64,000 nt of DNA from NCBI GenBank assembly GCA_948907985.1, contig CAQWMM010000003.1, positions 7,173-71,172 of the forward strand, written 5' to 3'. Shown here piece by piece: positions 2,782-18,491 of the stretch (position 1 is the first letter of the stretch; the number at the start of each line of letters is the position of its first letter). Origin of the DNA: an uncultured Bacillota bacterium. Its GTDB lineage: Bacteria; Bacillota; Dehalobacteriia; UBA4068; UBA4997. A model generated the notes under the pieces. It had not been told where the DNA came from, made no database searches, and saw only the letters and a program-made list of their open reading frames with translations. Made by a program: the position numbers and the translations under genes.

Positions 2782-2793
2782 GGGGGGCCTCCT

Positions 2794-3059: not shown

Positions 3060-3100
3060 GATGGCATGGAATGTCCGATTGAGATGTGTTAAAATGCTAG
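3060..3100 (+). promoter_or_regulatory. Copy A of a 40 bp direct repeat that carries an extended -10 promoter (TGtTAAAAT), upstream of the small terminase gene.
   Basis: gatggcatggaatgtccgattgagatgtgttaaaatg matches 4780-4819 at 37 of 40 positions. The TGn plus -10 sits at the same offset in both copies. Confidence 0.45.
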
Positions 3101-3135
3101 TATAAAAAAATATGAAAAATTTTAGGGGGGATTAT

Positions 3136-3363
3136 ATGGTGGAAAAAGCCAGGCGGGCAGTGGCCTGCAAAACGGAGATTATGCAGTTTTTGACGGAGGT
3201 GATGCGCGGCGAGCTGGACGCGCCCAAGGTGAGCGAGCGAACCAAGGCGGCGGAACTGTTGGGGCGCAGCAAGCATATTTTTTCTGATAAGGCGGAGAAA
3301 AATAAAGAGGCCGAGCGGGCGTTGGAGGTGAGAATTTGGGGCGAGGATGATTTGGCGGATTGA
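3136..3363 (+). CDS. Phage small terminase subunit, PBSX XtmA-like, truncated. Only the C-terminal region is present and the N-terminal HTH DNA-binding domain is absent.
   Basis: EIMQFLTEVMRGEL…PKVSERTKAAELLGRS resembles the C-terminal half of XtmA/Terminase_2. An in-frame stop at 3103-3105 prevents any N-terminal extension. RBS AGGGGGG precedes the ATG at 3136. Confidence 0.55.
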   Translation: MVEKARRAVACKTEIMQFLTEVMRGELDAPKVSERTKAAELLGRSKHIFSDKAEKNKEAERALEVRIWGEDDLAD

Positions 3364-4628
3364 GATTGGCCGTGGGGCGGAAAGGCGGTGAGGGTGTGCA
3401 GGAAATATATCTGCCGGATTTGGTGGGCGGAGGTTATCGGGATTTTTGGCATTTTACCGGCCGCTACCGCGTGGTGAAAGGCAGCCGGGCCAGCAAGAAA
3501 TCCAAAACGACGGCGCTTAATTTGATTTGGCGGCTGCTACGCCTGCCGCAGACCAATTTGTTGGTGGTGCGCAAAACTTACCGCTCTTTGCGAGATTCGT
3601 GCTATGCGGAACTTTGCTGGGCAATCCGGCGGCTGGGCGTGGAAGCGGCCTGGCAGCGCCGGGAGGAGCCTTTGGAACTGACCTATTTGCCGACGGGGCA
3701 GAAGATCTTTTTTCGGGGGTTGGATGACCCGCAAAAAATAACTTCGATTGCCGCGCGGCAGGGACAGCTCTGTTTTTTATGGCTGGAGGAGGCCTATGAG
3801 GTTAGCCGGGAGGAAGATTTTGCTATTTTGGATGAGAGTATTCGGGGCGAGGCCCCTTTTAAGCAGCTGACGCTGACTTTTAACCCGTGGAATGAAAACC
3901 ACTGGTTAAAGCGGCGTTTTTTTGACTGCCCGGCTAGCCCGGATATTTTGGCCAAGACGGTGGATTATCGCTGCAATGAGTTTTTGGACGAGGCCGACCG
4001 GCGCGTTTTTGCCAATATGGCCATTCAGAACCCGCGGCGTTACCGGGTGGCCGGTTTGGGAGAATGGGGCGTGGCCGAGGGGCTGGTTTATGAAAACTGG
4101 CGCGAGGCGGACTTTGACTGGCGGGAGGCAGCCGCGGGGGCGCAGGCGCGCAGTATCTTTGGGCTGGATTTTGGTTATGTGAATGATGAGACAGCTCTGT
4201 TTTGTGGCCTGGTTGATTTGACGGCGCGGCGTATTTGGGTTTTTGATGAGATATACCGGCGGGGGTTGAGCAATGAGCAGCTTTATGCCGAGATTGTGGC
4301 TAAGGGTTATGCTAAGGAGAAAATTTGCGCGGACAGCGCCGAGCCGAAGAGCATTGACCGCCTGCGGGAACTGGGCTTGAGCCGGATTAAGCCTGCGCGC
4401 AAGGGAGCGGACAGCGTGCGGCACGGAATTGACTTTTTGCAGGGTTTTGAAATTTTGGTATCGCCGCGCTGCCCCAATTTTTTGGCCGAGATCAGCGCGT
4501 ATAGCTGGCAGACAGACAAAAATGGCCGGCTGCTGAATGTGCCGGAGGACGGGCATAATCATTTGATGGACGCGATGCGTTATGCGGCGGAGGATTTGCT
4601 GCGGGGAGCCAGTTTTAGTTTTGCCTAA
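3360..4628 (+). CDS. Phage large terminase subunit, PBSX/Terminase_3 family.
   Basis: A Walker-A-like YRVVKGSRASKKSKT motif and family-typical N- and C-terminal nuclease regions. It overlaps the terS stop. The start codon is uncertain (TTG at 3360 or a downstream GTG). Confidence 0.85.
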   Translation: MRLAVGRKGGEGVQEIYLPDLVGGGYRDFWHFTGRYRVVKGSRASKKSKTTALNLIWRLLRLPQTNLLVVRKTYRSLRDSCYAELCWAIRRLGVEAAWQRREEPLELTYLPTGQKIFFRGLDDPQKITSIAARQGQLCFLWLEEAYEVSREEDFAILDESIRGEAPFKQLTLTFNPWNENHWLKRRFFDCPASPDILAKTVDYRCNEFLDEADRRVFANMAIQNPRRYRVAGLGEWGVAEGLVYENWREADFDWREAAAGAQARSIFGLDFGYVNDETALFCGLVDLTARRIWVFDEIYRRGLSNEQLYAEIVAKGYAKEKICADSAEPKSIDRLRELGLSRIKPARKGADSVRHGIDFLQGFEILVSPRCPNFLAEISAYSWQTDKNGRLLNVPEDGHNHLMDAMRYAAEDLLRGASFSFA

Positions 4629-4631
4629 AAA

Positions 4632-4750
4632 AGTTCACTAGTACTCCATCTGCTTTGTCATTAGGCTGTTTGGCTTCGTCAACGTACTATTAGTACGCCT
4701 CCTCGCCGCACAGTCTAATTCCTCGCATTTGGGGCACTATTGAACTTTTT
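4632..4750 (+). other. Structured intergenic element between terL and portal. A long-range stem (agttcactagtac…ggcactattgaact) is followed by TTTTT. It encloses a 29 nt palindrome-containing motif.
   Basis: The outer complementary arms match at 11 of 13 positions. A U-run lies at 4746-4750. The internal perfect palindrome is CGTACTATTAGTACG. Confidence 0.35.
4676..4704 (+). repeat. 29 nt motif tcgtcaacgtactattagtacgcctcctc (7-1-7 palindrome plus a CCTCCTC tail), copy 1.
   Basis: Its reverse complement recurs at 29205-29233 with one mismatch. Confidence 0.6.
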
Positions 4751-4779
4751 AGTTTAGTAAAATATCCTTAGGAAAAAAA

Positions 4780-4819
4780 GATGGCATGGAATGTCCGATT
4801 GTGATGTGTTAGAATGGTA
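4780..4819 (+). promoter_or_regulatory. Copy B of the 40 bp repeat with an extended -10 (TGtTAGAAT), upstream of the portal gene.
   Basis: It matches 3060-3100. A strong RBS (GAGGAGGG) lies downstream. Confidence 0.45.
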
Positions 4820-4875
4820 TCATCAGGAAAGAATGAGAGCAACAGAAAAAGATTGAGGAGGGATGAAAAATTATA

Positions 4876-6366
4876 ATGCAAAAAATTGCCGATGCGTGCC
4901 GCAGGCTGAGTTCAGCCGGCGGTTTTTTGTACGCCGGAAAAGGCGGGCAGCCCGAGGAGCTGGAGGTGTTGGCCTGGGAACTGGAACGCTGGCTGACCTC
5001 GGAGCGGCGGCGTTGGATGGTGTTGGGCGAAGAATATTTTGCCGGCCGGCAGGATATTCTGCGGGAGCAGCGCCTGGTGATTGGGCGCGGCGGCCAGTTG
5101 GAGCCGGCCCAAAATCTGCCGAATAACCGGCTGGTGAATAATCAGTATGCCAAGTTGGTGAACCAGAAAACCAACTATATGTTGGGGCAACCGATTAGCT
5201 GGGAGGCGGAATGCCCAAAATTTGCCGACGCGTTGAGCCGGGTTTTTGACCGGACGTTTATGCGGCTGTTAAAAAGGCTGGGCAAGGATTGTTATAATCA
5301 GGGGATTGCCTGGCTTTATCCGTATATTGATTTGAGCGGGCGGCTGGCCTTTGCCCGCTTTGGCGGCCGGGAGATTTTGCCCTTTTGGGCGGACGCGGAA
5401 CATAATATTTTAACGGGCGCTTTGCGTTTGTTTGGCCGGGAGGTTTGGCGGCGGGGGCGGCTGCAAACCGTTTGGGGCGTGGAAGTGTATGATAGCGGCG
5501 GGGTGCGCCGGTTTGGCTGGGAGCCGGGGGCCGGCAGGCTGACGGCCTGGCAGTGGGACGCGCCGGGCGAGCGAGCGGACAATTCGGCGGCGGGCCGGCG
5601 GCTGGCTTATTTGCGGCATCGGACGGCGGCTGGTGGCTGGGAGGAATTTAATTGGCAGCGCGTGCCGTTGATTCCTTTTAAGCTGAATGAAAGGGAACAG
5701 CCTTTGATCTGCCGGGTGAAATCCTTGCAGGACGCGCTGAATACCATGTTATCTGGTTTTGAAAACGTTATGCAGGAAGACAGCCGCAACACAATTTTGG
5801 TGATTAAAAATTATGACGGTACGGATTTGGCGGAGTTTCGACATAATTTGGCGGCGTTTGGGGCGGTTAAGGTGAAAACGATCGACGGCGCGGAGGGCGG
5901 TATTGACAGCCTGGCCGTTGAAGTGGACGCCGGCAATTATCAGGCTATTCTGGAACTTTTGCAGCGGGCGATTATTGAAAACGGTTTGGGGTTTGATTCT
6001 AAGCTGGACCGGGCTTATCGGGCGGCCAATGAGTTGAATATTAAATCAATGTATAGCGACATATGCCTGGACGCTAACGATTTGGAAACTGAATGGCAGG
6101 CCAGTTTTACCGACTTGCTGTGGTTTGTGAAACGCTATCTGGCGATGAGCGGACAGGGCGATTTTCTGGATTGTGGCTGGCGGCTGATTTTTAACCGGGA
6201 CATTATGATTGACGAAAGCGAGGTTATTGACAACTGTTTGAAATCCCGCGGGCTGCTTTCGGATAAATCAATTATTGCCCAGCACCCCTGGGTGAACGAC
6301 GTGGAGGGCGAGCTGCGCCGTTTGCAGGCGCAGGCCAAACAGGAAAATGACGAGGCGCAGTTATGA
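4876..6366 (+). CDS. Phage portal protein, SPP1 gp6-like.
   Basis: NNRLVNNQYAKLVNQKTNYMLGQP is portal-family motif text. The protein is 496 aa and sits immediately after terL. The exact start is ambiguous, because the RBS is 15 nt from the ATG. Confidence 0.8.
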   Translation: MQKIADACRRLSSAGGFLYAGKGGQPEELEVLAWELERWLTSERRRWMVLGEEYFAGRQDILREQRLVIGRGGQLEPAQNLPNNRLVNNQYAKLVNQKTNYMLGQPISWEAECPKFADALSRVFDRTFMRLLKRLGKDCYNQGIAWLYPYIDLSGRLAFARFGGREILPFWADAEHNILTGALRLFGREVWRRGRLQTVWGVEVYDSGGVRRFGWEPGAGRLTAWQWDAPGERADNSAAGRRLAYLRHRTAAGGWEEFNWQRVPLIPFKLNEREQPLICRVKSLQDALNTMLSGFENVMQEDSRNTILVIKNYDGTDLAEFRHNLAAFGAVKVKTIDGAEGGIDSLAVEVDAGNYQAILELLQRAIIENGLGFDSKLDRAYRAANELNIKSMYSDICLDANDLETEWQASFTDLLWFVKRYLAMSGQGDFLDCGWRLIFNRDIMIDESEVIDNCLKSRGLLSDKSIIAQHPWVNDVEGELRRLQAQAKQENDEAQL

Positions 6367-7316
6367 AACAGTTTGATTTGTTGATTGGCAACGGCGAAGA
6401 CTGGCTGAGGCCGCAGGTTTTAAGCGGCCTGCGCTTGCAGCGGGGGGCTAACGCGGCGGCGGTGTTGGATTTTGCGGTGCTTAAAAACGGTATGCTTAAC
6501 TTTTTGGAGGGCGCGCCGGTGCGGCTGTTGGTTGACGGGCAGGTGATTTTTGCCGGGCGGGTGTTTGCCAAAAAGCGCAGTCAGCCGGAAATTATTCAGG
6601 TTCGGGCTTATGACCAGCTGCGTTATTTGCAAAACCGGGACTGCTGCGTTATGCAGGATTTTTCGCCGGGGGATTTGCTGCGGCGGATTTGCAGCGAGAA
6701 TAATTTGCAGATTGGAACGGTGGCGGATTGTGGGGTGCGCCTGTCGGCGCATAGCTTTGACAACCGGCGCTATCTGGATATGCTGGGGGAGGTGTTGAAT
6801 GAGGTTTGGCAGGCCAAGGGCAGCCGCTATTTTGTTTATGACGAGGCCGGCAAAATCTGCCTGCGGAGCTGCTGGGATTTGCGGGTGAATATTCTGTTGG
6901 CGGAGAACTGCATTGGCGGCTATGAATATGCTACCTCGGTGGACGGACAAACCTTTAACCGGGTTAAGGTGATTTATGAGGATAAGCGCAAGGGCCTGCG
7001 CAAGGAGTTTGTGGCGGAGAACCGGGAGCGAATTGACGATTGGGGGCCATTGCAGCTGGTGAGCAAGAGCGCCGACGCTAGGCAGCAGACTTATAGCCGG
7101 GCCAGAGAACTTTTGCAGGCTTATCAGCGGCGGCAGGAAAGCCTGGTGGTGCGGGACGCGCCAGGGGATTGGCGGGTACGCGGCGGCGGCATGGTTGGCC
7201 TGCGTTTGAATTTGGGCGAGCAGCTGGTGGACTGTTGGGCGTTGGTGAAAAGAGCGGAGCACAGAATTGTGGCGGGAAATTGTTTGATGAATTTAAACCT
7301 GGAGTGTATATATTAA
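6363..7316 (+). CDS. XkdQ/YqbQ-family phage tail protein (late-control-D/hub-like).
   Basis: Recalled similarity to B. subtilis XkdQ: GAPVRLLVDGQVIFAGRVF…IQVRAYDQLRYLQN…ESLVVRDAPGD parallels GDGIKFYWKGKLLFLGAVY…LVAYDDIWYLANN…ESLSVTTIG. Confidence 0.6.
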   Translation: MKQFDLLIGNGEDWLRPQVLSGLRLQRGANAAAVLDFAVLKNGMLNFLEGAPVRLLVDGQVIFAGRVFAKKRSQPEIIQVRAYDQLRYLQNRDCCVMQDFSPGDLLRRICSENNLQIGTVADCGVRLSAHSFDNRRYLDMLGEVLNEVWQAKGSRYFVYDEAGKICLRSCWDLRVNILLAENCIGGYEYATSVDGQTFNRVKVIYEDKRKGLRKEFVAENRERIDDWGPLQLVSKSADARQQTYSRARELLQAYQRRQESLVVRDAPGDWRVRGGGMVGLRLNLGEQLVDCWALVKRAEHRIVAGNCLMNLNLECIY

Positions 7317-7359
7317 GCTGACATATTAAATATATATGAATTTTGGGGAGGGGTGAGAA

Positions 7360-7806
7360 ATGTATCATTATTTTATTGGCGATGTGGAGCTGCCGCTGGC
7401 GCCGGAAAAATACAGCCTGAAGATTTGCCAGAATAATCAGCTGGTGCAGCTGGCCGACGGCGGCGAAATGAACCTTTTGCGGCCGGCGGGGCTTAGGGAA
7501 ATCAGCTTTGAATTGCTGCTGCCCTATTTTGAGGATTCGCCGCTGCTGCGCAACGGGGTTAAGGTTTTTAAGCCAATTTATTATTTGAACCGTCTGGCGG
7601 AATGGGCAGCGGCGGGGGAGCCTAGACGGCTGATTATTTATCGCTCGCTGCCGAACGGCGAGGAAATTTTTAATACCAGTATACTGGTGAGTTTGGAGGA
7701 TTATCAGGTTTTGGAGGCGGCTGATTTGGGCTTTGACGTGCGGGTGGCTCTGCGGCTGCGCGAATATCAGGAAAAGGTTTGCCAGAAATATGTGGGCGGC
7801 TTATAG
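7360..7806 (+). CDS. Hypothetical phage protein (tail/baseplate module), 148 aa.
   Basis: It lies between the XkdQ-like gene and a DUF2577-like ORF, has coding-like codon usage, and follows an RBS-like GGGGAGGGGTGAG. Confidence 0.4.
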   Translation: MYHYFIGDVELPLAPEKYSLKICQNNQLVQLADGGEMNLLRPAGLREISFELLLPYFEDSPLLRNGVKVFKPIYYLNRLAEWAAAGEPRRLIIYRSLPNGEEIFNTSILVSLEDYQVLEAADLGFDVRVALRLREYQEKVCQKYVGGL

Positions 7807-7847
7807 GCGAATTTTGGCAGTTTGGCGGGAATTAAGGAGGTGAGCGT

Positions 7848-8192
7848 TTGCAGACGGCGATTTTGGCAGAAACGCTGGCGGGGCTGGCCCAACGGGCGGC
7901 GGACAGTCAGTTGGCGGTGAACTTTGCCTTTGGCCGGGTGGTGGGGGAAAGCCCTTTGCAGATTTTGGTGGAGCAGCGGCTTTTGGTTCCGGAGGAACAG
8001 CTGATTTTGACCGACCCGGTGATTGGCAGTGTGGAGCGGCGGCTGGACGACGAGCGTTATTTACATGATAAGATTTATACCGTTTATCATAATTTGACGC
8101 TTGACGATCGGGTTTTGCTGGCCTGCGTACAGGGCGGGCAGGCTTATGTGATCGTCAGCCGTTATTATGCTACGGAACTGGACGAGGCCTGA
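7848..8192 (+). CDS. Hypothetical phage protein (possibly XkdR/DUF2577-like), 114 aa.
   Basis: TTG start preceded by AGGAGG at 7 nt. Context is the tail-hub block. Confidence 0.35.
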   Translation: MQTAILAETLAGLAQRAADSQLAVNFAFGRVVGESPLQILVEQRLLVPEEQLILTDPVIGSVERRLDDERYLHDKIYTVYHNLTLDDRVLLACVQGGQAYVIVSRYYATELDEA

Positions 8193-8227
8193 AAAACAGG
8201 TTTTGATAATGAAAAGGGGGTGAAAAG

Positions 8228-9190
8228 ATGGAACTTTGGGAAGATGCACTGCGCGCAGGCCTGAATTGGCTGCGGCAGGGGCGCGTTTGGCAACAACGAG
8301 CGGTTGACCGGCAAAGTCTGGGCGGCGGGCGGCCGCTGGTGAGCGAGGGCTCGACGGTGGGGAGGCCGAGCGAACAGGAGTTGGCCCTGTTGTTGGGCGT
8401 GGTTGGCAGGCCGGAAAACCCCGGCAAAAAAATTCGGCAGGGGTTGAGTAATCTGAACCGGCCCGGAGGCGGCGGCAGGCCGCAGAAGCGGGCGGCCTTG
8501 CCCGCACTGCCGAACCTGCCTGCACCGCCGGACTTGGTTACGTTGCCAGGCTCGCCCGCGTTGTCAGGCTCGTTGGTTGCGGCGGCTGGGAAAAAAAATG
8601 TACGGGGGCGGCCGCCAGTTGATTTGGCCGTTCGGCTGCCGGCGTTTACAGCGCGGCCGAATACTGGCCAACCGCCGGAAACCGCCGCCGAAGCGGAAAC
8701 GGACGGACAGTCGCCAATTCTGGCAGATTGGGCGGTTGACGTGCGGGCGGGAATGGAAGTGCGAAATTCTCCGGCGCGGGAAATGGCCGGCGAGGCGCAA
8801 AGCGCTGCGGGGCTGGCGGCTATCTTGGCTGAAAGCGAGGAGGTGATTTCGCGGCAGAGCGGCGAGGCGGCGGTGGCTGGGCCTGCTGATATAATAGCGG
8901 AAGCGAGCGGGCCGCCGGATAAAATACCGGAGCTGAACAGCGGGGAGCGGGTGGCTGCAATACCGGTGGCGAACAGGCCGGAGCCGGCGGACGATAATCA
9001 AAGGCTGGCGGCGGCAATTAATCTGACCGAAAAGGCGGCGCGCGAAACCCAGTTAGCGGTGGAGAGCCGGGCCGGCGATAGCGATTTTTTGACGGCATCG
9101 GCTGTGGATTTGGACGGTTTGGCCGATTTGGTAGCCGAAAGGCTGTGCGATGATATTGAGGCGATATTGAACAGTTCATCCTTGGTGTGA
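8228..9190 (+). CDS. Pro/Ala/Gly-rich low-complexity phage protein (320 aa), with a structured N-terminus and an acidic C-terminus.
   Basis: Good RBS (GGGGGTGAAAAG-ATG). It sits where a tape-measure gene would be expected, next to the tail chaperone. There is no helical or tape-measure signature. Confidence 0.45.
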   Translation: MELWEDALRAGLNWLRQGRVWQQRAVDRQSLGGGRPLVSEGSTVGRPSEQELALLLGVVGRPENPGKKIRQGLSNLNRPGGGGRPQKRAALPALPNLPAPPDLVTLPGSPALSGSLVAAAGKKNVRGRPPVDLAVRLPAFTARPNTGQPPETAAEAETDGQSPILADWAVDVRAGMEVRNSPAREMAGEAQSAAGLAAILAESEEVISRQSGEAAVAGPADIIAEASGPPDKIPELNSGERVAAIPVANRPEPADDNQRLAAAINLTEKAARETQLAVESRAGDSDFLTASAVDLDGLADLVAERLCDDIEAILNSSSLV

Positions 9191-9204
9191 GGGGAGGTGA
9201 AATG

Positions 9205-9600
9205 ATGAGCCAGAGTTTGACGGCTTTTTTGCAGGCTAATGCCCGGCGGGAGAATGTGCGCGTGGCGGTATCCGACCGGTTTGTGGACGAGGCGGGCCGG
9301 GCGCAGGAATGGGAATTGCAGCCTTTAACCGCGGCGGATTGGCAGGAGCTTTTGCTGGCGGCGGGCGGCGCCGGGCAGCCGCATTATAACGACATCTTTT
9401 TGGCGCTTTTGGCAAAATCTGTGGTGTGGCCGGATTTGAACAGCGCCGAATTGCAGGACAGTTATGGAGTGTTGGGGGCGGAAAAGCTGCTGTTGGCGAT
9501 GCTCTCGCCGGGCGAATATCAGGTTTTGCAGAGCGCTTTTGAGCAGCTTAATTTGCAGAGCCAGGCGGCGGGCGCGCAGTTGGCGGCGGCAAAAAACTGA
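9205..9600 (+). CDS. XkdN-like phage tail assembly chaperone (G-like product).
   Basis: MSQSLTAFLQANA…VAVSDRFVDEAG…VVWPDLNSAELQDSYGVLGAEKLL…LSPGEY closely parallels B. subtilis XkdN (MSKLQAFLQQNA…VVVSERFKDEEG…YPDLTNAELQKSYGVMGADELV…LPGEF). Confidence 0.7.
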   Translation: MSQSLTAFLQANARRENVRVAVSDRFVDEAGRAQEWELQPLTAADWQELLLAAGGAGQPHYNDIFLALLAKSVVWPDLNSAELQDSYGVLGAEKLLLAMLSPGEYQVLQSAFEQLNLQSQAAGAQLAAAKN

Positions 9601-9755
9601 TTGAGGCCGGCGATTGGGAGGTGAGCGCGGCGTTGGCGGCAATGCTGCGCTGGGGCTGGCGGCCAACGGATTTTATCCATATGAGCGCTGCCGAGCGGGC
9701 CTTTGTAATTGCCGGCCTGCAAAAGGAGTTGGCGGTTGGGCAGCGGTGCGTTTGA
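9205..9755 (+). CDS. Predicted G-T-like frameshift fusion of the tail assembly chaperone. It shifts -1 at 9591-9597 and continues in frame 0 to the stop at 9753-9755.
   Basis: The extension reads LIEAGDWEVSAALAAMLRWGWRPTDFIHMSAAERAFVIAGLQKELAVGQRCV. It looks protein-like rather than frame junk. Confidence 0.45.
9591..9597 (+). other. Canonical -1 programmed ribosomal frameshift heptamer A_AAA_AAC at the end of the chaperone gene.
   Basis: The X_XXY_YYZ heptamer is in the zero frame, 1 codon before the stop. The -1 frame is open for 52 more codons, and GC-rich structure follows. Confidence 0.5.
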
Positions 9756-9778
9756 ATATGAAAGGAGGTGAGCGGTAT

Positions 9779-11146: not shown

Positions 11147-11148
11147 TT

Positions 11149-11613: not shown

Positions 11614-11655
11614 TTTGGCCGGTTGGCCGGAAATTGACAGCTTGGGGGTGATTGT

Positions 11656-12069: not shown

Positions 12070-12090
12070 GCGAAAGGAGGCGGAGAACTT

Positions 12091-12627
12091 TTGCAGGATT
12101 TTTTATGGGCGGTGGCGGACAGGCTGCGCCGGCTTTTCCCGGAGGGAGCGCCGGTTTATTTTGGCCGGCTTTTGCAGGGTGAAAGAACGCCCTGTTTTTA
12201 TTTGCCGCCGCCGGCGCTGCGCCGTCAGCTTTGGCCCTGCGGCCGGGTGCGCCGGGAAATTGAATTGGAACTGTGTTATTATCCCCGGCAGCGCCGATTT
12301 TCGGCGGAAACGGCGGCTAATTCGTCCGCGGCGCAAAATTTAAGCGGTTTGAGCGAACAGGAGCGCATCGGCGAGGGGTTGGTGCGCGGGATGGGCGAGT
12401 TGACGGGACGCCGGCGCGGTTATCGAGGCCGGGAACTTAGCTGGCAGGCTGGCAATGAATGTCTGCGCTTTAAGGCCAGGTATGTTTATTATACCACTTT
12501 GGAGCTGGAGGCGGCGGACGGCTGGAGCGAGCCGCCGGCAGGCGCGGATTTGATGGAGTTCTGGTTATTGGCGGACAGCGAAGATAATAACGACAATATT
12601 GTAAATGATGATCATACAGAAAAATAA
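12091..12627 (+). CDS. Phage tail-completion/HK97 gp10-like protein (candidate).
   Basis: Assigned by position (third small gene before the sheath). TTG start with a GGAGG RBS. Confidence 0.3.
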   Translation: MQDFLWAVADRLRRLFPEGAPVYFGRLLQGERTPCFYLPPPALRRQLWPCGRVRREIELELCYYPRQRRFSAETAANSSAAQNLSGLSEQERIGEGLVRGMGELTGRRRGYRGRELSWQAGNECLRFKARYVYYTTLELEAADGWSEPPAGADLMEFWLLADSEDNNDNIVNDDHTEK

Positions 12628-12650
12628 ATTTTATAATGGAGGGAAGAAGT

Positions 12651-13958
12651 ATGGCGTTTGGTGGCGGAAGTTTTGTAACGCAAAATAAAATTTTGCCCGG
12701 GGTTTATGTGAATGTTAATCAGCAGAGCCGGGCTGGTTCTAACGTGTCTGAGCGGGGCGTGGCTGCTTTAGGCCTGGAGCTGGACTGGGGGCCGGAGGGC
12801 GAGCCCTTTTTTGTGGAGGCCGGCGAGTTTAGGAGCAAGGCGCAAAAGCTGTTTGGTTATGCTTATGGTGATGAAAAGCTGAAAGGGCTGCGGGATTTGT
12901 TTCTGCACGCGGGGGGTTGTTATTTTTATCGTTTGAATGGCGGCGCTAAGGCGGGCTGCGCTTTGAGCACGGCCAAATACAGCGGCGAGCGGGGCAACGC
13001 GCTGACGGTGAAGGTGGAGGCTGGGCCGGAACCGGGCGGCGGTTTTGAGGTTATAACTTTTTTGGCCGGCCAGGAGATTGACCGCCAGCAGGTGAGCAGC
13101 GCCGCCGCTTTGCGGGATAATGATTTTGTTTGTTGGAAAAAAGACGCGGAACTGACGGCTGACAGTTATGTTCAGCTGACCGGAGGCAGCAGCAAGGCTA
13201 AGGCGGCCGCGGAGGATTATCAAACGATGCTTGAGGCGTTGACGGAATGTGATTTTAACGTTTTGGGCTGTTTGAGCACGGAGCAGGCCGTGAAAACTTT
13301 GCTGGCCAAGTATACCAGAGAACAGCGCGAGGATAACGGGCGCAAGTTCCAGACGGTGCTTTATGATTATGGGGCTAATTATGAGGGCGTGATTTCAGTG
13401 GGCTGCCCGGCGGCGGAAACTGATTGGCCGGCCAGCGCGTTGGTTTATTGGGTGTTGGGCGCGGAAGCCGGCTGCGCGGTGAACGCTACGCTGACCAATG
13501 CCGTTTACGACGGGGAGATTAAGGCGCAGGCGGTAAGCGGGCAGCGGAATTTGCAGCAGGCCCTGTTGGACGGGAAACTGGTTTTGCACCGTTTGAACGG
13601 CGAACTTCGGGTTTTGGAGGACGTGAACTCTCTGGTGGGCTGGCAGGAGAGCGGCCAGGAAGACCGGCGCTTTAATCAGACGATCAGAGTGCTGGACCAG
13701 ATTGTGCTGGATTTGGCCGGCCTGTTTTATCAGCGTTATTTGGGAATTGTGCCTAATGACAACGCCGGGCGCATTAGCCTGTGGAGCGATGTGGTGGCTT
13801 ACTTCCGCAAGCTGGAGGGGCTGCGCGCTATCGAGGGCTTTTCTACCGACGACGTGGCGGTGGAGCAGGGCGAAAATAAAAAAGCGGTGGTGGTTTCGGT
13901 CCGTCTGAACGTAACCAACGCGATGTCGCAGTTATACCTGACGGTTACTTTTAACTAA
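12651..13958 (+). CDS. Phage tail sheath protein (XkdK-like).
   Basis: A ~435 aa protein with a sheath-family N-terminus (MAFGGGSFVTQNKILPGVYVNVN). GGAGGG RBS. Confidence 0.85.
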   Translation: MAFGGGSFVTQNKILPGVYVNVNQQSRAGSNVSERGVAALGLELDWGPEGEPFFVEAGEFRSKAQKLFGYAYGDEKLKGLRDLFLHAGGCYFYRLNGGAKAGCALSTAKYSGERGNALTVKVEAGPEPGGGFEVITFLAGQEIDRQQVSSAAALRDNDFVCWKKDAELTADSYVQLTGGSSKAKAAAEDYQTMLEALTECDFNVLGCLSTEQAVKTLLAKYTREQREDNGRKFQTVLYDYGANYEGVISVGCPAAETDWPASALVYWVLGAEAGCAVNATLTNAVYDGEIKAQAVSGQRNLQQALLDGKLVLHRLNGELRVLEDVNSLVGWQESGQEDRRFNQTIRVLDQIVLDLAGLFYQRYLGIVPNDNAGRISLWSDVVAYFRKLEGLRAIEGFSTDDVAVEQGENKKAVVVSVRLNVTNAMSQLYLTVTFN

Positions 13959-13988
13959 AAATTAATAATATAGAAAGAGGGGAAAAAT

Positions 13989-14456
13989 ATGGCAACAACC
14001 ATGAACGCCTGGGACGCTTTAAGCGCCGGATTGGCGGAATGTTATGTTACAATCGACGGACGGCGTTATAAATTTATGCAGGCCATTAATCTGGAGGCCA
14101 GCATTGAAAAGAAAAAAATGCAGGTGCCGGTTTTGGGACGCGTTGGCCGGGGCAATAAAGGCGTTAGCTGGAGCGGTTCCGGCAAGGCGACCTTTCATTA
14201 TAACAGCTCGGTGTTTCGGGAACTGTTGTATCGCTTTAAGGAAAGCGGCGAGGATATGTATTTTGATATTCAGATTACTAACGAGGACCCGGTGAGCAGC
14301 GTTGGCCGGCAAACGGTGATTTTGAAAGACTGCAACCTGGACGGCGGCGTTTTGGCCAAGTTCAGCGCGGAGGATGAATATTTGGAGGAGGAACTGCGCT
14401 TTACCTTTGAAGACTTTGAGATCCCGGAGAAATTCAGTAATCTGGCCGGGATGTAG
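13989..14456 (+). CDS. Phage tail tube/core protein (XkdM-like).
   Basis: A 155 aa protein directly after the sheath gene, with tube-family composition. Confidence 0.75.
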   Translation: MATTMNAWDALSAGLAECYVTIDGRRYKFMQAINLEASIEKKKMQVPVLGRVGRGNKGVSWSGSGKATFHYNSSVFRELLYRFKESGEDMYFDIQITNEDPVSSVGRQTVILKDCNLDGGVLAKFSAEDEYLEEELRFTFEDFEIPEKFSNLAGM

Positions 14457-14474
14457 GCGGGGGAGGCCGAACTG

Positions 14475-14840
14475 ATGACGGAGGAGAGCAGAACCTATGC
14501 AATGAGCGAGCTTTCCGGCCAGGGCTGTGTGCTGCGGGGTATGACGGAGGGAGCGGCGGCGCTGCGCCAGACGGTGTTTATGCTTTTGCAGACTGAAGCC
14601 GGGCAGTGGCCGGTTTATCCTGACGGTTTTGGCGTGGAGCTGGCCGACCTGTTCGGCCAGCCCCTGGTTTATGTGATACCGGAGGTGGAAAGGCGGCTGC
14701 GGGAGGCGCTGCTGCGGGACGAGCGGATTTTGAACGTGGAAAATTTCAGCTTTAAGCAGCAGAGCAGCCGCCTGCTGGTTGAGTTCACGGTGAAAAGCGT
14801 TTACGGCGAAATGACGCTGGCCGCGGAAATTGCGCTTTAG
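14475..14840 (+). CDS. XkdS-like (DUF2634) baseplate protein.
   Basis: A 121 aa protein immediately before baseplate J. Confidence 0.5.
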   Translation: MTEESRTYAMSELSGQGCVLRGMTEGAAALRQTVFMLLQTEAGQWPVYPDGFGVELADLFGQPLVYVIPEVERRLREALLRDERILNVENFSFKQQSSRLLVEFTVKSVYGEMTLAAEIAL

Positions 14841-14865
14841 GCGGACAGGCGGGGAGGTGAAAGAA

Positions 14866-15936
14866 ATGTTTGAAAATATGACCTATGAAAAAATTATGAA
14901 CGATATGTTGGCGCAGGTGAATAACCCTGTGGATAAGCGCGAGGGTTCGCTGATTTGGGATGCGCTGGCCCCGGCGGCCTGGGAACTGGCCAGACTTTAT
15001 GCCGCTATGGACCAGGTTTTGTTGGAGGGGTTTGCCGATACGGCCTCGCGCCAGTATTTAATTCTGCGGGCCAGCGAACGGGGATTGACGCCGCGGCAGG
15101 CCAGCGCCGCCAGAGCCCTGGGCGAGATTGAACTGGCGGCGGGGGCTAAAGCGCCGCTGGGCGCGCGTTTTTGCTGCGACCGTTTTAACTGGCGTATTGT
15201 GGCTGATTTAGGCGATAAACTTTATGAACTGGAATGTGAGGAGCTGGGCAGCAAGCCCAACGCTTATATTGGCAATATGGTGCCGCTGGAATATATGAAC
15301 GGTTTGAATAAGGCGGAACTGCTCAGGATTCTGGTCCCTGGCGAGGACGTGGAGAGTACGGAAAACTTCCGGGCGCGCTATTTGAAAGATTTGGTGGAAC
15401 AGAGTTTTGGCGGCAATGCGGCAGATTATGTTAATAAGGCGGAAAGTATCGCCGGGGTGGGCGCGGCTAAGGTGCAGGCGGCCTGGAAGGGCGGCGGCAC
15501 TGTGAAACTGCTTTTGTTGAACGAAAAAATGGGTGTGCCGGACAATGCGTTGGTGCAGCGCGTGCAGATGACTTTTGATCCACCGCCGGGGCAGGGTGCC
15601 GGTTTGGGATTGGCCCCGATTGGCCATGTGGTTACGGCGGCGGCAGCCAGAGCCAGAAGCGTGGCGGTGAGTTTGAACGTTACGCTGCGCGAGGGCTGGC
15701 AGCTTGCCGATGTGCAGAAAGCGGCGGCGGGCTGTGTGGACAAATATTTTGCGGATTTGTGCGCCGGATGGGGTGCGGCGGAGCGGCTGATTGTGCGCGT
15801 CAGCCAGTTGGAGGCCCGGATTTTGCAGCTTGACGGCATTTTGGATGTGGGCAGTTTGCAGCTGAACGGCCAGAGCGCAAACCTGACTTTGGCGGCGGAT
15901 GAAATCCCGGTGCGGGGGCAGGTGAGCGTTCATTAA
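14866..15936 (+). CDS. Baseplate J-like protein (XkdT-like).
   Basis: Baseplate_J-like N-terminal region (MTYEKIMNDMLAQVNNPVDKREGSLIWDALAPAAWELARLYAAMDQ). Confidence 0.8.
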   Translation: MFENMTYEKIMNDMLAQVNNPVDKREGSLIWDALAPAAWELARLYAAMDQVLLEGFADTASRQYLILRASERGLTPRQASAARALGEIELAAGAKAPLGARFCCDRFNWRIVADLGDKLYELECEELGSKPNAYIGNMVPLEYMNGLNKAELLRILVPGEDVESTENFRARYLKDLVEQSFGGNAADYVNKAESIAGVGAAKVQAAWKGGGTVKLLLLNEKMGVPDNALVQRVQMTFDPPPGQGAGLGLAPIGHVVTAAAARARSVAVSLNVTLREGWQLADVQKAAAGCVDKYFADLCAGWGAAERLIVRVSQLEARILQLDGILDVGSLQLNGQSANLTLAADEIPVRGQVSVH

Positions 15937-15985
15937 TAATACGGATTATAAAACGGCGGCGAGCTTTGAGGCGCAGGCGGGGCAG

Positions 15986-16516
15986 CTGGCGGAATATCTG
16001 CCGCCGGTGGCTTTGCAGATTCGGAATGTTGAGCAGGTTTTGGACGTGGAACAACCTTTTTTTGCCACGGCCTGGCGACGGCTGGCTGGGGTTTTGTCGG
16101 AGGAGATGATTATGCAGGCCGGCAGCTATGGCATTGGCCGCTGGGAGGAGCTTTTGCAAATTGCCGGGCGGGACAGCCTGAGCCTGGAAGAGCGGCGCAG
16201 ATTGGTTCTGCTGCGCCTGAACGAACAGCTGCCTTTTACGATCAGCCGCCTGCGGGAACTGTTGGCTGCCAATGTGCCGGCGGGCGAATATGTTTTGACG
16301 CTGGACCATGCTGCTTATACGCTGCACGTCTTTTTGGAACTTAGCTCTAAGGGCTGTGCCCCGGCTCTGCGGGAGCTGCTGCGGCGGGTGCTGCCCGCCA
16401 ATTTGCAGTTTGATTTGCAGCTTTTGTATAACACCTATGGCCGCCTGGGCCAATATAAACACGCGGAACTGGCGGGGCTGCGCCATTGGGAAATTCGTGA
16501 GGAGGTGCTTGATTGA
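15986..16516 (+). CDS. XkdU/YmfQ-like (DUF2313) tail protein. The start codon is non-canonical or uncertain.
   Basis: The conserved N-terminal YLP motif (LAEYLPPV) lies upstream of the first GTG (16007). There is no ATG, GTG or TTG between the upstream stop (15923-15925) and the motif. A CTG at 15986 after GGCGGGG would give M-AEYLPP. Confidence 0.5.
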   Translation: MAEYLPPVALQIRNVEQVLDVEQPFFATAWRRLAGVLSEEMIMQAGSYGIGRWEELLQIAGRDSLSLEERRRLVLLRLNEQLPFTISRLRELLAANVPAGEYVLTLDHAAYTLHVFLELSSKGCAPALRELLRRVLPANLQFDLQLLYNTYGRLGQYKHAELAGLRHWEIREEVLD

Positions 16517-17574
16517 TGGCTACTTATACCATAAATTATAATTTGAAAAAACCTGCGCCGTCGGAATATTATAATATTCAGGATTTCAATAATAACGCCG
16601 ATACCATCGACGCTAAGCTTAAGCTGGGCGATGAGGCCAAAACTCTGGCTGACGCGTTGAATACTAAAATGACGGCGGCTAATAAAAATATTGAAAATCT
16701 GCTGAAAAGAAGTTTGATTGCCGTTGAAATTTGGGCTCCGCCTAATACGCAGGTTACGCTGGAGCAGGGGCAGCTTTCGTTTTCCGGCACGGTGAGCAGC
16801 AGCATGACGCTGCTGGCTCCGGTATCGGCTCTGGGGCTTTGGGAGATGACCTATATCTATGCCGGCAAAACCTATTTTCGGGACGTCTGGGTTGATCGGA
16901 TTGGCTATACGCGGGCGGTGGCCGCACCGTCGCTGGCGGCTTCGCCCTGGGCTTTTATCGCTAAGGTTTCGGAGGCCGGGCTGGCCCGAGAGGCCTATGT
17001 TCTGGGCAGCACCAAGAGCGTTGCCAGCAGTTTGGGCACTTATGATATGCAGATTATCGGCTTTGATCATGACTGTTTGACCACGCCGCGGCCGGGGCGG
17101 GAAAGGGCCGGCCTGACCTTTCAAATGCGCTCGTCTACGCCGGCGAATTATTCTATTGATCCGGATATTTATTTTGCGGACAGCTGGCTGGAATGTAATA
17201 TGCGGACCGAGCAGCTGCCGGCTATTCTGGAATCTATGCCGGCCGATTTGCAGAGTGTGATTAAACTGGTGAACAAGTATACCGCCAGCGTTAATTCTAT
17301 GGAGGGACTAAGCAGCAGCGAAGAGTTGTTTTTGTTCTCTGATTATGAACTTTGCGGACACAGCGGGCTGATTACGCCGTATTCTTACAGCCGGCAGTAT
17401 GAATATTACTGCTGCGGCCATACGCCGCAAAAGAATGTTTCTTACTGGCTGCGCAATAATACGTCCGGCCCAAATGGTCTGGAAAATTTCTTATTGCTGG
17501 ACAGTGCAAATAAATCTCCGAAGTTTAGCCGCTGCGAAAATAAGCAAGGGCTTTGTTTGGGATTTTGTGTGTGA
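16516..17574 (+). CDS. Phage tail fibre/receptor-binding protein.
   Basis: The N-terminus (ATYTINYNLKKPAPSEYYNIQDFNNNADTIDAKL) is the conserved tail-fibre N-terminal motif. The C-terminus is Cys-rich. Confidence 0.55.
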   Translation: MATYTINYNLKKPAPSEYYNIQDFNNNADTIDAKLKLGDEAKTLADALNTKMTAANKNIENLLKRSLIAVEIWAPPNTQVTLEQGQLSFSGTVSSSMTLLAPVSALGLWEMTYIYAGKTYFRDVWVDRIGYTRAVAAPSLAASPWAFIAKVSEAGLAREAYVLGSTKSVASSLGTYDMQIIGFDHDCLTTPRPGRERAGLTFQMRSSTPANYSIDPDIYFADSWLECNMRTEQLPAILESMPADLQSVIKLVNKYTASVNSMEGLSSSEELFLFSDYELCGHSGLITPYSYSRQYEYYCCGHTPQKNVSYWLRNNTSGPNGLENFLLLDSANKSPKFSRCENKQGLCLGFCV

Positions 17575-17630
17575 TTTTTGATTTGCCTTGCGTAAAAAAA
17601 CTGAATACAATATGAAGGAGGGGTTGCGTT

Positions 17631-17852
17631 TTGACAATTTTGCAAAGACTGGCCAGACTGTTGGATGTTAAAAGTCTGGTTACGCTGGCGCTGGTTTTGG
17701 TTCTGTGTATCATGACCTTGAGCGGCCGGGAGGTGAGCGAACTTTTTAGCAGTGCGGTAATGCTGGTGTTGGGTTTCTTTTTTGGCAAGAATGTACCGGC
17801 GGCTGGCGGCCAGCAGGAAAATAACGGCAGGGAGAACCAGAAAGGAGTGTAG
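17631..17852 (+). CDS. Holin (candidate), 73 aa with two transmembrane segments.
   Basis: A small hydrophobic protein immediately upstream of the lysin gene. Confidence 0.5.
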   Translation: MTILQRLARLLDVKSLVTLALVLVLCIMTLSGREVSELFSSAVMLVLGFFFGKNVPAAGGQQENNGRENQKGV

Positions 17853-17858
17853 GGTGGT

Positions 17859-18491
17859 ATGCGTTATCCTTTTGATAAGTATCGTCTGGGTACGGGCTAT
17901 GGCGCTAAAGGCGGCCTGTGGCGGGCCGGCTGGCACAGCGGGCAGGATTTTATCTCGGTGAGCTTTGGCGGCGACGGTTTGGTATATCCGCTTTATGAGG
18001 GGCGGGTGCTGCGGGTTAGCCGGGGCGGCAGCTACGGCAACTGTGTGCAGGTGCGCCATGCCGACGGTTATCTTACGCTTTATGCGCATTTGCGTACAGT
18101 TTATGTGCGCGCCGGGCAAAAAGTGGGCGAGAATACGGTTTTGGGCATTGAGGGGGCGACCGGCAACGTTACCGGCCGGCATTTGCATTTGGAGGTACAT
18201 AAAGGGGAATATCATTATCCCTCGCTGGTTAATCCGCTGCAATTTATCGCCCAAAGAATGATGAACGGCGGCTTGACAGAAAATTCAGAAAAGGAGGCGG
18301 ACGGCGAATTGGAAAAACTGCTGAAAATTCGCCTGAACGGCACGGAGAAAGTTGTACAGGCGATTGAAAAAAGCGGCCATAATTATGTGCGCCTACAGGA
18401 TCTGCGCGATGGATTGATTGCGGTGGAATATGACGAGGCGGCGCATATTCCGGTGGTGCAGGTGCATAATAAAAAATATATTAATATGTAA
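17859..18491 (+). CDS. M23-family peptidase endolysin.
   Basis: LytM-type motifs HSGQD…GNCVQVRH…TLYAHL…GATGNVTGRHLHLEV. The C-terminal ~70 aa domain is of unknown type. Confidence 0.75.
   Translation: MRYPFDKYRLGTGYGAKGGLWRAGWHSGQDFISVSFGGDGLVYPLYEGRVLRVSRGGSYGNCVQVRHADGYLTLYAHLRTVYVRAGQKVGENTVLGIEGATGNVTGRHLHLEVHKGEYHYPSLVNPLQFIAQRMMNGGLTENSEKEADGELEKLLKIRLNGTEKVVQAIEKSGHNYVRLQDLRDGLIAVEYDEAAHIPVVQVHNKKYINM

Follow-up and report, generated by a model that had tools for sequence, protein, structure and literature searches.

A vertically inherited phage-derived element of gut Peptococcaceae with head, PBSX-type contractile tail and lysis genes and a probable miniature tape measure

The DNA analysed, a window of 64 kb together with the 10 kb upstream of it, contains a cluster of phage genes, 15 kb long and covering head, contractile tail and lysis, that looks like a host-owned particle, either a gene transfer agent or a killer particle, and not an ordinary prophage. 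The best explanation of positions 3136-18491, to which we give a probability of roughly 0.6, is a domesticated, vertically inherited phage-derived element encoding a complete DNA-packaging head, a PBSX-type contractile tail and a lysis pair. The element is vertically inherited under purifying selection in a group of gut Peptococcaceae and, as in gene transfer agents (viriforms), is devoid of integration, lysogeny and replication genes. We infer that particles are produced, along with the type of DNA they would package, a ruler role for the 320 aa protein P320, and the tail length.

Organization of the operon and its surroundings

ORF listing and Pfam/PHROGs searches resolve 3136-18491 into a single plus-strand operon of 21 genes for packaging, head, contractile tail and lysis, with all 21 ORFs intact (Table 1). 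The first-pass annotation had described a head and tail late operon in which the 496 aa portal is the largest ORF and no ORF of tape-measure size exists on either strand, and these points are borne out. Coding sequence occupies 94% of the chain with a widest gap of 247 nt, leaving no space for a tape measure, and the longest minus-strand ORF, at 280 aa, is a shadow of XkdQ. The description is amended in the start of TerS, now placed at 3136 (75 aa), and in the holin candidate recognized at 17631-17852 before the M23 gene. Pfam, PHROGs and NCBIfam searches detected no tape-measure or protease domain in the element ORFs, including those earlier called hypothetical, in agreement with the original report of no recognisable prohead protease. 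The bona fide phage relatives sampled (L037 and L045), in which portal and capsid are separated by a Mu F-like protein and a scaffold, likewise carry no protease-sized gene, so that its absence from the element is not a reduction.

Table 1. Features of the operon, with positions in the window.
Feature	Position	Strand	Basis or remark
Extended -10 promoter-like box, TGnTAnAAT	3087..3095	+	about 40 nt upstream of terS
Small terminase TerS, 75 aa	3136..3363	+	C-terminal match to phrog_51
Large terminase TerL	3366..4628	+	PF04466 E=3e-50, PF17288; dN/dS 0.06-0.14
Portal, SPP1 gp6 type, 496 aa	4876..6366	+	PF05133 E=6e-63
Baseplate hub, YqbQ/XkdQ family, displaced to directly after portal	6363..7316	+	PF24032 E=3e-68
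XkdP-like tail protein, 148 aa, without LysM	7360..7806	+	phrog_380 positions 34-154
DUF2577/XkdR baseplate protein	7848..8192	+	PF10844 E=1.6e-13
P320, probable miniature tape measure	8228..9190	+	slot and termini; no family match
XkdN-type tail assembly chaperone	9205..9600	+	PF08890 E=9e-19
Slippery heptamer A AAA AAC and -1 frame extension of chaperone, G/GT-type product	9591..9755	+	
Head scaffolding protein, internally deleted, 89 aa	9779..10048	+	alignment to orthologues
Major capsid protein, SU10 type	10154..11146	+	PF17236 E=1.7e-60; dN/dS 0.04-0.12
Two head-tail adaptor/connector candidates, 154 and 137 aa	11149..12069	+	position between capsid and tail terminator
Tail terminator	12091..12627	+	PF20765 E=1.3e-6
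Contractile tail sheath	12651..13958	+	four sheath Pfam domains; phrog_279 E=1e-105
Tail tube, XkdM type	13989..14456	+	PF09393 E=5e-47; dN/dS 0.01-0.06
Baseplate wedge: sheath initiator XkdS, baseplate J XkdT, Mu gp48/XkdU	14475..16516	+	PF10934, PF04865, PF10076
Tail fibre/receptor-binding protein	16513..17574	+	after XkdU; partial phrog_37900 match
Holin candidate, two hydrophobic segments (two TM)	17631..17852	+	phrog_13256 E=5e-12, function unnamed
M23 peptidase	17859..18491	+	PF01551 E=4.5e-20

The Xkd-type contractile tail and baseplate set (K, M, N, P, Q, R, S, T, U) is matched throughout in Pfam/PHROG; the window copy of XkdP is without the C-terminal LysM found on its homologues in groups 2 and 3. 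A block of XkdQ, XkdP, XkdR, P320 and XkdN is placed between portal and capsid, giving the order portal-Q-P-R-P320-N-scaffold-MCP...tube-S-T-U. The broken canonical order already pointed out by the first-pass annotation recurs, with XkdQ directly 3' of the portal, in the genome loci L001-L009, nine in all, and in the viral contig L026, indicating that the shuffling is not an assembly artefact.

At the 5' end, the TGnTAnAAT pattern is invariant in aligned upstream regions of five group-1 loci (the group to which P320 belongs), and may serve as the promoter. The two adaptor/connector candidates show weak PHROG matches (phrog_442 E=0.0035 and phrog_615 E=1e-4). At the 3' end, the candidate holin gene is kept immediately 5' of M23 in every group-1 locus and its product would act as the holin, with the M23 peptidase encoded 3' of it being the probable endolysin.

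The upstream neighbours of the element are CotF, an ORF of 57 aa, an SLH wall protein of 1803 aa, SerA/SerC-like genes and HicB, and those downstream lspA, rluD, rarA and apgM, the latter named from translations, with the family scan covering selected later ORFs. Consistent with the earlier claim, gene calls, with precomputed Pfam labels for the upstream part, revealed no integrase, repressor or replication gene in the window or the 10 kb upstream. An Xre/Xpf-type regulator at the element edge was likewise not found in those upstream calls and labels or in the downstream translations, and neither an att-like repeat nor a tRNA flanks the element.

Chromosomal site and vertical inheritance

In all seven genome loci whose sequence extends into the right flank, the element is next to lspA-rluD-rarA, with cotF on the left also in L001-L004, thereby establishing conservation of the position in related genomes, every genome compared being a MAG. 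The lineages that share the element at this site have diverged by up to 30% in the housekeeping proteins of its flanks. The element and host-flank trees have identical topology, with pairwise distances correlating at r=0.99, and dS of the element equals dS of the flanks. Element dN/dS spans 0.01-0.5 against 0.05-0.23 for host flanks, with terminase, portal and capsid among the most constrained genes (0.04-0.17), while GC3 (0.654 for the element, 0.652 for the host) and codon usage (r=0.96) are host-like. Conserved site, co-divergence, purifying selection and codon usage together strongly support the earlier suggestion of a reduced, domesticated particle without a lysogeny module.

Small terminase and head

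TerS matches only the C-terminal part of phrog_51 (positions 143-230 of 261), whereas its orthologues in L006 and L008 measure 155-188 aa and keep the N-terminal domain, the L008 protein being a full PF03592 Terminase_2. The comparison shows the window TerS as a truncated form missing its N-terminal DNA-binding half. The supposed absence of a scaffold does not hold. The ORF at 9779-10048 has no family match of its own, but its N- and C-terminal parts align to orthologues of 150-224 aa, of which that in L005 is PF06810 Phage_scaffold (E=2.6e-16), and the alignment shows an in-frame internal deletion leaving 89 aa. Scaffold dN/dS reaches 0.4-0.5 in the clade of the window and L001, measured over few codons, and this remodelling could mean that head assembly is failing there.

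The chaperone, the frameshift and P320

P320 adjoins the tail assembly chaperone, its stop overlapping the GTG at which the XkdN ORF is listed to start (9187), and the gene order is reversed at this point, with the tape-measure candidate preceding the chaperone. The chaperone gene carries a programmed-frameshift signal, the slippery site GCAAAAAACTGAT, which occurs once in the window; past the A AAA AAC heptamer the -1 frame continues without a stop over about 54 codons, and the extension LLRWGWRP..F....E.AFVIAGL is conserved in all three lineages. Both site and open, conserved extension are kept also in lineages without a full-size tape measure. To our knowledge, the sole established role of the XkdN chaperone and its frameshift product is handling the tape measure (lambda G/GT, P2 E/E').

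The P320 slot is filled in all group-1 loci by orthologues with conserved termini and a fast-evolving middle, their length being held at 259-374 aa across ten lineages despite fast sequence change. The description of the protein as Pro-rich fails as a family trait, its 8.8% Pro comparing with 0.8-8% in orthologues. Pfam, PHROGs and NCBIfam searches with P320, its orthologues and their C-terminal fragments found no tape-measure domain (PF20155 TMP_3, tape-measure PHROGs), and no tape measure matched P320 directly at a significant level. Among 1.8 and 5.8 billion proteins, searches returned a handful of relatives of 288-318 aa and a 122 aa fragment; the only long matches, of 2711 and 3303 aa, arise via short internal repeated stretches and do not establish a tape-measure link. 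The AF2 model, of low confidence (pLDDT 48), places helices at 3-30, 182-210, 256-290 and 295-317 and disorder at 32-188, about half of the chain being disordered.

The sister lineage, group 2, encodes mini proteins of 211-300 aa that demonstrably carry a tape-measure C-terminus, as judged by profile matches. An HMM built only from tape measures of 740-1070 aa retrieved five of them among 5735 ORFs at E=4e-6 to 4e-3, the group-2 HMM in turn matched, at 2.6e-11, a canonical tape measure of 636 aa, and group-2 proteins matched positions 665-705 of 706 of phrog_1068 'tape measure' at E=5e-6 and 4e-5. The likeness of the P320 C-terminal motif to these mini tape measures is weak (hhalign P=0.003-0.004 between the C-terminal profiles, and P=0.003-0.034 overall for P320 against group 2); P320 orthologues are among the top sub-threshold matches of the group-2 HMM, and the top non-member match of the P320 HMM is a group-2 protein.

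P320 is thus probably a miniature tape measure, about a third of normal size, the ruler role being favoured by its coupling to XkdN, the retained frameshift and the C-terminal likeness to group-2 proteins. Of the two options left by the first-pass annotation, a 320 aa ruler or a system working without a tape measure, the XkdN overlap, the frameshift and the group-2 motif (P about 0.003) favour the former. The competing possibility, which we consider less probable, is that there is no ruler or that a full-size tape measure lies elsewhere in the genome, of which the window and the 10 kb upstream were read, P320 being an unrelated disordered protein such as an assembly factor or internal protein. 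The missing domain, a non-significant profile comparison of P320 with the genuine tape measures of group 3, an AF2 model that does not predict one continuous long helix, and the fact that the related group-2 gene belongs to the head module, where it is flanked by terL and portal, all speak for it. It leaves unexplained, however, why selection maintains XkdN and its frameshift product, why P320 adjoins XkdN at a constrained length, and why the group-2 counterpart ends as a tape measure does, and the element offers no other candidate ORF.

Proposed mechanism and alternative explanations

Under the favoured explanation of a domesticated element, the operon would be under host control, transcribed from the conserved extended -10 promoter. 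SU10-type capsids would be built on the shortened scaffold without a protease and filled by TerL and a TerS lacking its DNA-binding half, a combination expected to package non-specific, largely host DNA. The tail would begin on the XkdQ/XkdP-like/XkdR hub gripping the C-terminus of P320, a putative tape-measure remnant held in solution by XkdN and its -1 frameshift product, with tube and sheath polymerising along it until capped by the terminator. At about 1.5 Å per residue, the tail specified by orthologues of 259-374 aa would be very short, at roughly 40-55 nm, and particles would be released by the holin and M23.

A killer particle (PBSX-type phibacin, or tailocin-like), in which the contractile tail is selected for killing related strains while heads are made and DNA transfer is irrelevant, is a possible but less probable reading. 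The tail module is of PBSX type, XhlA-like ORFs are present in L005 and L008, the clade of the window has a degenerating scaffold, and none of the large structural genes diverges faster than the fibre (35-66% identity), as expected for a specificity determinant. The constraint on terminase, portal and capsid, however, is hard to reconcile with useless heads, and since PBSX packages DNA too, this reading departs from the domesticated element only in the activity selected. Far less credible is an ordinary cryptic prophage remnant decaying after loss of its early region. Missing lysogeny and replication genes, truncation of TerS, scaffold and tape measure, and loss of LysM would suit such decay, but neutral decay over a dS of about 1 would have wrecked the reading frames, whereas all ORFs are intact at one site across divergent hosts, with matching trees and dN/dS as low as in host genes. 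We also consider very unlikely a self-mobilising helper-dependent satellite or piece of a split phage, drawing regulation, replication and a full tape measure from another locus or a co-resident phage. FpGTA and the known gene transfer agents are indeed spread over several loci (PMC12946183), and the DNA read is only part of the genome. Satellites, however, have integrases and replication genes, usually without a full structural set, the reverse of the element, and strict co-divergence with the host speaks against mobility.

Comparison with known systems

In PBSX of Bacillus subtilis the gene order is canonical, with a XkdO tape measure of 1332 aa encoded between xkdN and xkdP; there are Xre/Xpf regulators, and lysis is by XhlA/XhlB/XlyA. 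Its particles enclose random host DNA, about 13 kb in length, and kill but do not propagate. The element shares homologues of XkdK sheath, XkdM tube, XkdN with its frameshift, and XkdP, Q, R, S, T and U, and resembles PBSX as a chromosomal set of head, tail and lysis genes for which own propagation is impossible. It differs in the SU10-type capsid, the hub block between portal and scaffold, the M23 lysin, the 320 aa ruler candidate and the lack of a regulator at the locus, its ORFs showing neither an XkdO-type tape measure (TMP domain) nor the canonical order. The label PBSX-like accordingly stands for the tail module and falls for capsid, regulator and tape measure.

With R-type tailocins (pyocin R2, diffocin) the element has in common a domesticated contractile tail, a holin and lysin, and a variable fibre. 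Those particles, however, have no terminase, portal or capsid genes and a full-size tape measure, whereas the element retains terminase, portal, scaffold and capsid under strong constraint, setting the element apart from a class defined by the lack of head genes.

The RcGTA tail is non-contractile. Gene transfer agents such as RcGTA and FpGTA resemble the element in consisting of structural genes only, in vertical descent under purifying selection, and in a TerS without an obvious DNA-binding domain, whereas the element adds sheath, tube and a full baseplate. Particles of this class package random host DNA in pieces too small for the cluster itself and deliver it to recipients, and the one indirect hint that the element may do likewise is the TerS lacking its DNA-binding half. 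FpGTA of Faecalibacterium, reported as most likely podovirus-like, shows that such elements are active in gut Clostridia (PMC12946183).

P320 and the group-2 proteins resemble rulers shortened by in-frame internal loss with termini kept. In mutants of lambda gpH, TP901-1 and T4 gp29, such internal deletions shrink the tail in proportion. In contrast to these laboratory mutants, natural lineages have here fixed a reduction by two thirds, with the gene moved and both the central TMP_3 domain and the hydrophobic segments missing.

Group-3 phages (e.g. IMGVR_UViG_3300048923_000272, L037) have terminase, portal, scaffold, capsid, sheath, tube, XkdN and baseplate proteins 26-68% identical to those of the element and hold the slippery site in common with it. 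Unlike the element, they are arranged in canonical order, encode a TMP_3 tape measure of 738-1070 aa and a Mu F-like protein of the head, and have both a full TerS and an XkdP that carries LysM; they are found on viral contigs of about 28-44 kb.

Gene content and surroundings of the element

The element occupies window positions 3136-18491 on the forward strand as one tight gene chain, 94% coding, with a biggest gap of 247 nt. According to Pfam and PHROGs, it opens with TerS (matching the C-terminal part of phrog_51 only), TerL, and an SPP1-type portal, which at 496 aa is its largest ORF. YqbQ/XkdQ, an XkdP-like protein without LysM, DUF2577/XkdR, the 320 aa protein P320, the XkdN chaperone, and a small ORF follow, then an SU10-type capsid protein, two weak adaptor candidates, tail terminator, sheath, and tube, with the XkdS sheath initiator, baseplate J, Mu gp48/XkdU, fibre, and an M23 peptidase at the 3' end. 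Neither strand of the element has an ORF of tape-measure size in the ORF listing, no element ORF matched a tape-measure or protease family in Pfam, PHROGs, or NCBIfam, and the unassigned ORFs matched nothing in NCBIfam. ORF listing and family searches thus establish as real what the first-pass annotation had observed, a complete-looking head and tail operon in broken canonical order, with the portal as its largest ORF and no ORF of tape-measure size.

Upstream, the opposite strand carries the CotF gene and a conserved ORF of 57 aa; farther out come an 1803 aa SLH wall protein, SerA/SerC-like genes, and HicB. The 10 kb upstream contain neither an integrase nor a repressor, no att-like repeat or tRNA was found flanking the element, and the locus contains no regulator gene. 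Downstream, the order is DUF5665 membrane protein, lspA, rluD, rarA, and apgM, followed by glycogen-metabolism and Suf housekeeping genes. Forward-strand GC skew across window 3001-25000 is 0.21-0.33 in the element, well above the 0.02-0.18 of downstream host genes, with codon usage alike.

Coordinates of features in the window and in homologous loci (L numbers)
Feature	Location	Strand	Observation
SLH-domain wall protein, C-terminal 792 aa	window 1-2403		Ig-like repeats; GC 0.42-0.45 vs ~0.55 in neighbourhood
57 aa ORF and CotF gene	window 2515-2967	-	Conserved operon, divergent from the element's predicted promoter; 57 aa ORF without family, its DNA nearly invariant across window and L001-L004
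Promoter-like box TGnTAnAAT	window 3087-3095	+	Conserved upstream of element
TerS	window 3136-3363	+	
P320	window 8228-9190	+	Without family
XkdN chaperone	window 9205-9600	+	
Scaffold ORF	window 9779-10048	+	89 aa
Holin candidate	window 17631-17852	+	Two hydrophobic segments; phrog_13256, function unnamed
DUF5665 membrane protein	window 18680-18919		Between M23 and lspA; kept in 4/4 group-1 loci examined (L001, L003, L005, L008); may be part of the lysis module or host-owned
Lys/Glu/Gln-rich ORF, 306 aa	window 25049-25969	-	Without family, amid housekeeping genes; low-GC patch (0.41-0.50)
tmRNA gene	window 62606-62963		Tag peptide GNRNNLALAA
Scaffold, close relative	L001:9440-9940		Different N-terminus
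Scaffold, close relative	L003:9463-9978		Full length
Sheath gene	L005:8404-9685		Over two frames in MAG; sequencing error or real frameshift
Short tandem peptide-coding repeats	L008:7310-7519; L007:5814-6275		LSEVERTAEVADW..., KKYGSVRVAIEA...; with N runs, between element genes
One-TM coiled-coil ORFs	L005:13301-13543; L008:17308-17637		In the more remote group-1 loci, between fibre and holin candidate; missing from window; XhlA-like by eye; L005 ORF matches phrog_1863
Group-2 reduced elements (examples)	L010:2165-3206; L025:2706-3413		Tape measure shortened to 211-300 aa and moved between terL and portal
Group-2 element and upstream genes	L014:2977-4444		Directly 3' of spoIIAA-spoIIAB-sigF and DUF6062 gene; coincidence, or may hint at sporulation/mother-cell lysis
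Tape measure, 636 aa	L053:3944-5854		Human gut metagenome; canonical slot; C-terminus bridges groups 2 and 3
XkdN-to-XkdQ gap	L056:1010-2344		Only ~760 nt, M23-like fragments inside

Three lineages of relatives

With the capsid protein as query, 47 loci were retrieved and all window proteins were mapped onto them, the concatenated tree resolving three lineages, each supported by 100/100 bootstraps. Group 1, the window's own lineage, consists of the Peptococcaceae-type MAG loci L001-L009, Candidatus Avidehalobacter among them, plus the viral contig L026. The window's unusual gene order is common to all group-1 loci, exactly, indicating that the scrambled order is a fixed trait and no assembly artefact. 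In all seven group-1 loci reaching the right flank (L001-L006, L008), lspA-rluD-rarA adjoins the element, so the locus is conserved in relatives, a point raised by the earlier annotation; cotF also lies on the left side in L001-L004.

Group 2 (L010, L011, L014, L025, L027-L029) is a sister lineage from Oscillospiraceae or other Clostridia that keeps the canonical order, yet has an XkdN-to-XkdP spacing of only 150-200 nt. Its members, from Oscillospiraceae-like genomes, are thus reduced elements of a second kind of descent. At the expected fibre position, L010, L011, L014, L025, and L027 end with a secreted, conserved ricin-lectin protein of ~700 aa, and the L011 and L014 elements have host genes on their flanks and no integrase. 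Group 3 (e.g. L037, L041, L045) consists of ordinary phages on viral contigs of roughly 28-44 kb, with a tape measure of 738-1070 aa 3' of XkdN (PF20155 in L037) and a Mu F-like head protein plus a ~210 aa scaffold between portal and capsid. In L037 and L045, the pair of group-3 phages whose complete sequence was read, that interval has no protease-sized gene, so the missing protease of the window is probably an ancestral state rather than a reduction. A metagenome scan with XkdN recovered five distant loci, none of them an addition to group 1. L056 may contain another shortened or decayed tape measure.

Domestication and selection

Across eight group-1 genomes, the host-flank tree (lspA+rluD+rarA) and the six-protein element tree have the same topology, element and flank pairwise distances correlate at r = 0.99, and element-gene synonymous divergence equals the flank value in every tested pair. 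Codon usage is indistinguishable from that of the host (GC3 0.654 vs 0.652, r = 0.96). Element dN/dS spans 0.01-0.5, against 0.05-0.23 in the host flanks, with values of 0.01-0.06 for tube, 0.04-0.12 for capsid, 0.06-0.14 for TerL, and 0.08-0.18 for sheath. Vertical inheritance of the element predates the split of these lineages (flank proteins then up to 30% closer), and purifying selection acts on every element gene, those of the head among them. Together, these observations rule out a decaying prophage remnant, and the constraint on inherited head genes argues against a pure tailocin. Of the reduced, domesticated particle proposed earlier, domestication is upheld by the same evidence, while the absent protease, being probably ancestral, does not count as reduction.

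Candidate tape measures

XkdN genes of the window and of each of the three lineages terminate with GCA AAA AAC TGA, where a -1 slip at A AAA AAC opens a conserved frame of ~54 codons (LLRWGWRP..F....E.AFVIAGL in group 1). The chaperone pairs G/GT of lambda and E/E' of P2 handle the tape measure, and retention of the XkdN frameshift pair implies that a client protein exists. Group 2 encodes, between terL and portal, acidic mini proteins of 211-300 aa, whose last ~45 residues are, at the level of sequence, a tape-measure C-terminus. An HMM built from group-3 tape-measure ends alone matches five of them among 5735 ORFs (E = 4e-6 to 4e-3), and the reverse search with group 2 as query retrieves a group-3 tape measure at 3e-4 and the canonical tape measure of L053 at 2.6e-11, this locus from the metagenome scan helping to connect group 2 with tape measures. 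Positions 665-705 of 706 in phrog_1068, "tail length tape measure protein", also match the mini proteins (E = 5e-6, 4e-5). When the tape measure of a genuine relative was searched by sequence against the PDB, matches were confined to the central TMP_3 region; the search therefore gives no information on the binding partner of the C-terminus.

Positional orthologues of P320, 259-374 aa long, occur in every group-1 locus, with a conserved N-terminus and C-terminal motif (vDlD.LAdlVAERL.e.IE..L.S.SfV) and a fast-evolving Ala/Glu/Gly-rich middle. The motif aligns with the group-2 ending (DIDDVADMLTMRICDIM...), yielding P = 0.003-0.004 in C-terminal profile-profile comparison with group 2 and P = 0.034 in full-length local alignment, where C-terminus pairs with C-terminus. 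The group-2 HMM places P320 orthologues near the top of its sub-threshold matches, and the best non-member match of the P320 HMM is a group-2 protein. These signals make P320 the candidate ruler of the element, with a probability of about 0.6-0.65.

The alternatives are that the element has no ruler at all, or that one is encoded elsewhere in the genome; both appear less probable. The HMM of the P320 C-terminus found nothing significant outside group 1, groups 1 and 2 show no resemblance between their N-terminal profiles, comparison of P320 (group 1) with full-length group-3 tape measures was not significant, and ten 50 aa C-terminal fragments returned nothing relevant from PHROGs. Searches of 5.8 billion and 1.8 billion proteins yielded a handful of 288-318 aa relatives, a 122 aa fragment, and two very long proteins matched over short internal stretches only, establishing no tape-measure link, and the AF2 model (pLDDT 48), with terminal helices only and a disordered centre, is too poor for a fold search. 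The ruler role suggested by the first-pass annotation thus gains from the group-2 C-terminal resemblance and the retained chaperone, while direct matching to tape measures fell short of significance.

Scaffold, small terminase, and other reductions

A scaffold, stated earlier to be missing along with the protease, is present: the N- and C-terminal segments of the 89 aa ORF match same-slot proteins of 150-224 aa in relatives, the L005 orthologue being PF06810 Phage_scaffold (E = 2.6e-16). The window copy carries an in-frame internal deletion, with ~80 central residues gone; for the protease, the statement stands, no family having matched. Scaffold dN/dS is relaxed (0.4-0.5), and the deletion together with the changed N-terminus in L001 indicates that the scaffold is undergoing remodelling in the window clade. 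TerS measures 75-98 aa in the window and L001-L004, its N-terminal half being gone there but still present in L006 and L008, of which the L008 protein is a full PF03592 Terminase_2. Similar loss occurs in group-2 L011 and L014, the L011 Pfam match spanning profile positions 60-135 only. Additionally, XkdP has lost its LysM domain, and the Mu F-like head protein is missing in the element.

Lysis and expression

In every group-1 locus, a conserved ORF with two hydrophobic segments lies directly 5' of the M23 gene, and the two are read as a putative holin and endolysin. The conserved TGnTAnAAT box is likely the promoter. Sporulation-linked expression, considered in view of cotF beside the window element and spoIIAA-AB-sigF before L014, was dropped: upstream, a sigma-A-like extended -10 box alone is conserved and no promoter of the sporulation type turned up, and L006 and L009 have a different left flank.

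Comparison with known systems and significance

A host-controlled operon would produce heads of the SU10 type, filled with DNA and mounted on very short contractile tails of the PBSX type, with holin and M23 peptidase releasing the particles; selection for gene transfer and selection for killing would each be compatible with these genes. The earlier PBSX-like label holds for the tail module only, but the element departs from PBSX in tape measure, gene order, and regulators, and with its head genes constrained it is no tailocin. Its genomic features are those expected of a gene transfer agent (GTA), making it a candidate GTA. Literature searches turned up no account of the element. In gut Clostridia, the closest published counterpart is the Faecalibacterium GTA, FpGTA, whose TerS lacks an obvious DNA-binding domain, its authors citing the RcGTA small-terminase study (PMC12946183); FpGTA is, however, reported as most likely podovirus-like (PMC12946183), whereas the element encodes a contractile tail.

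Shortening of the tape measure in both lineages and loss of the DNA-binding half of TerS in a subset of each suggest common domestication steps. It is conceivable, though rather doubtful, that these elements form a new family of contractile-tailed GTAs in gut Clostridia, with two lineages, shrunken tape measures, and repeated loss of the TerS DNA-binding domain. One lineage would be fixed in Peptococcaceae (the window), and the second would occur in Oscillospiraceae-like genomes (group 2); both would have reduced their tape measures to 211-374 aa upon domestication, giving unusually short contractile tails, and the TerS domain would have disappeared from the window and L001-L004 in the first lineage and from L011 and L014 in the second. 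If true, such elements could be the source of GTA-like packaging reported in gut Oscillospiraceae and Christensenellaceae (PMC12946183). The element itself supplies a concrete and conserved candidate, one equipped with genes for a contractile tail. It also offers a natural experiment on the limits of tape-measure shrinkage, a ruler of 211-374 aa predicting tails of ~30-55 nm and the same rule giving roughly 110-160 nm for the 738-1070 aa of related phages. In addition, its late-operon gene order is permuted on one strand with function apparently kept.
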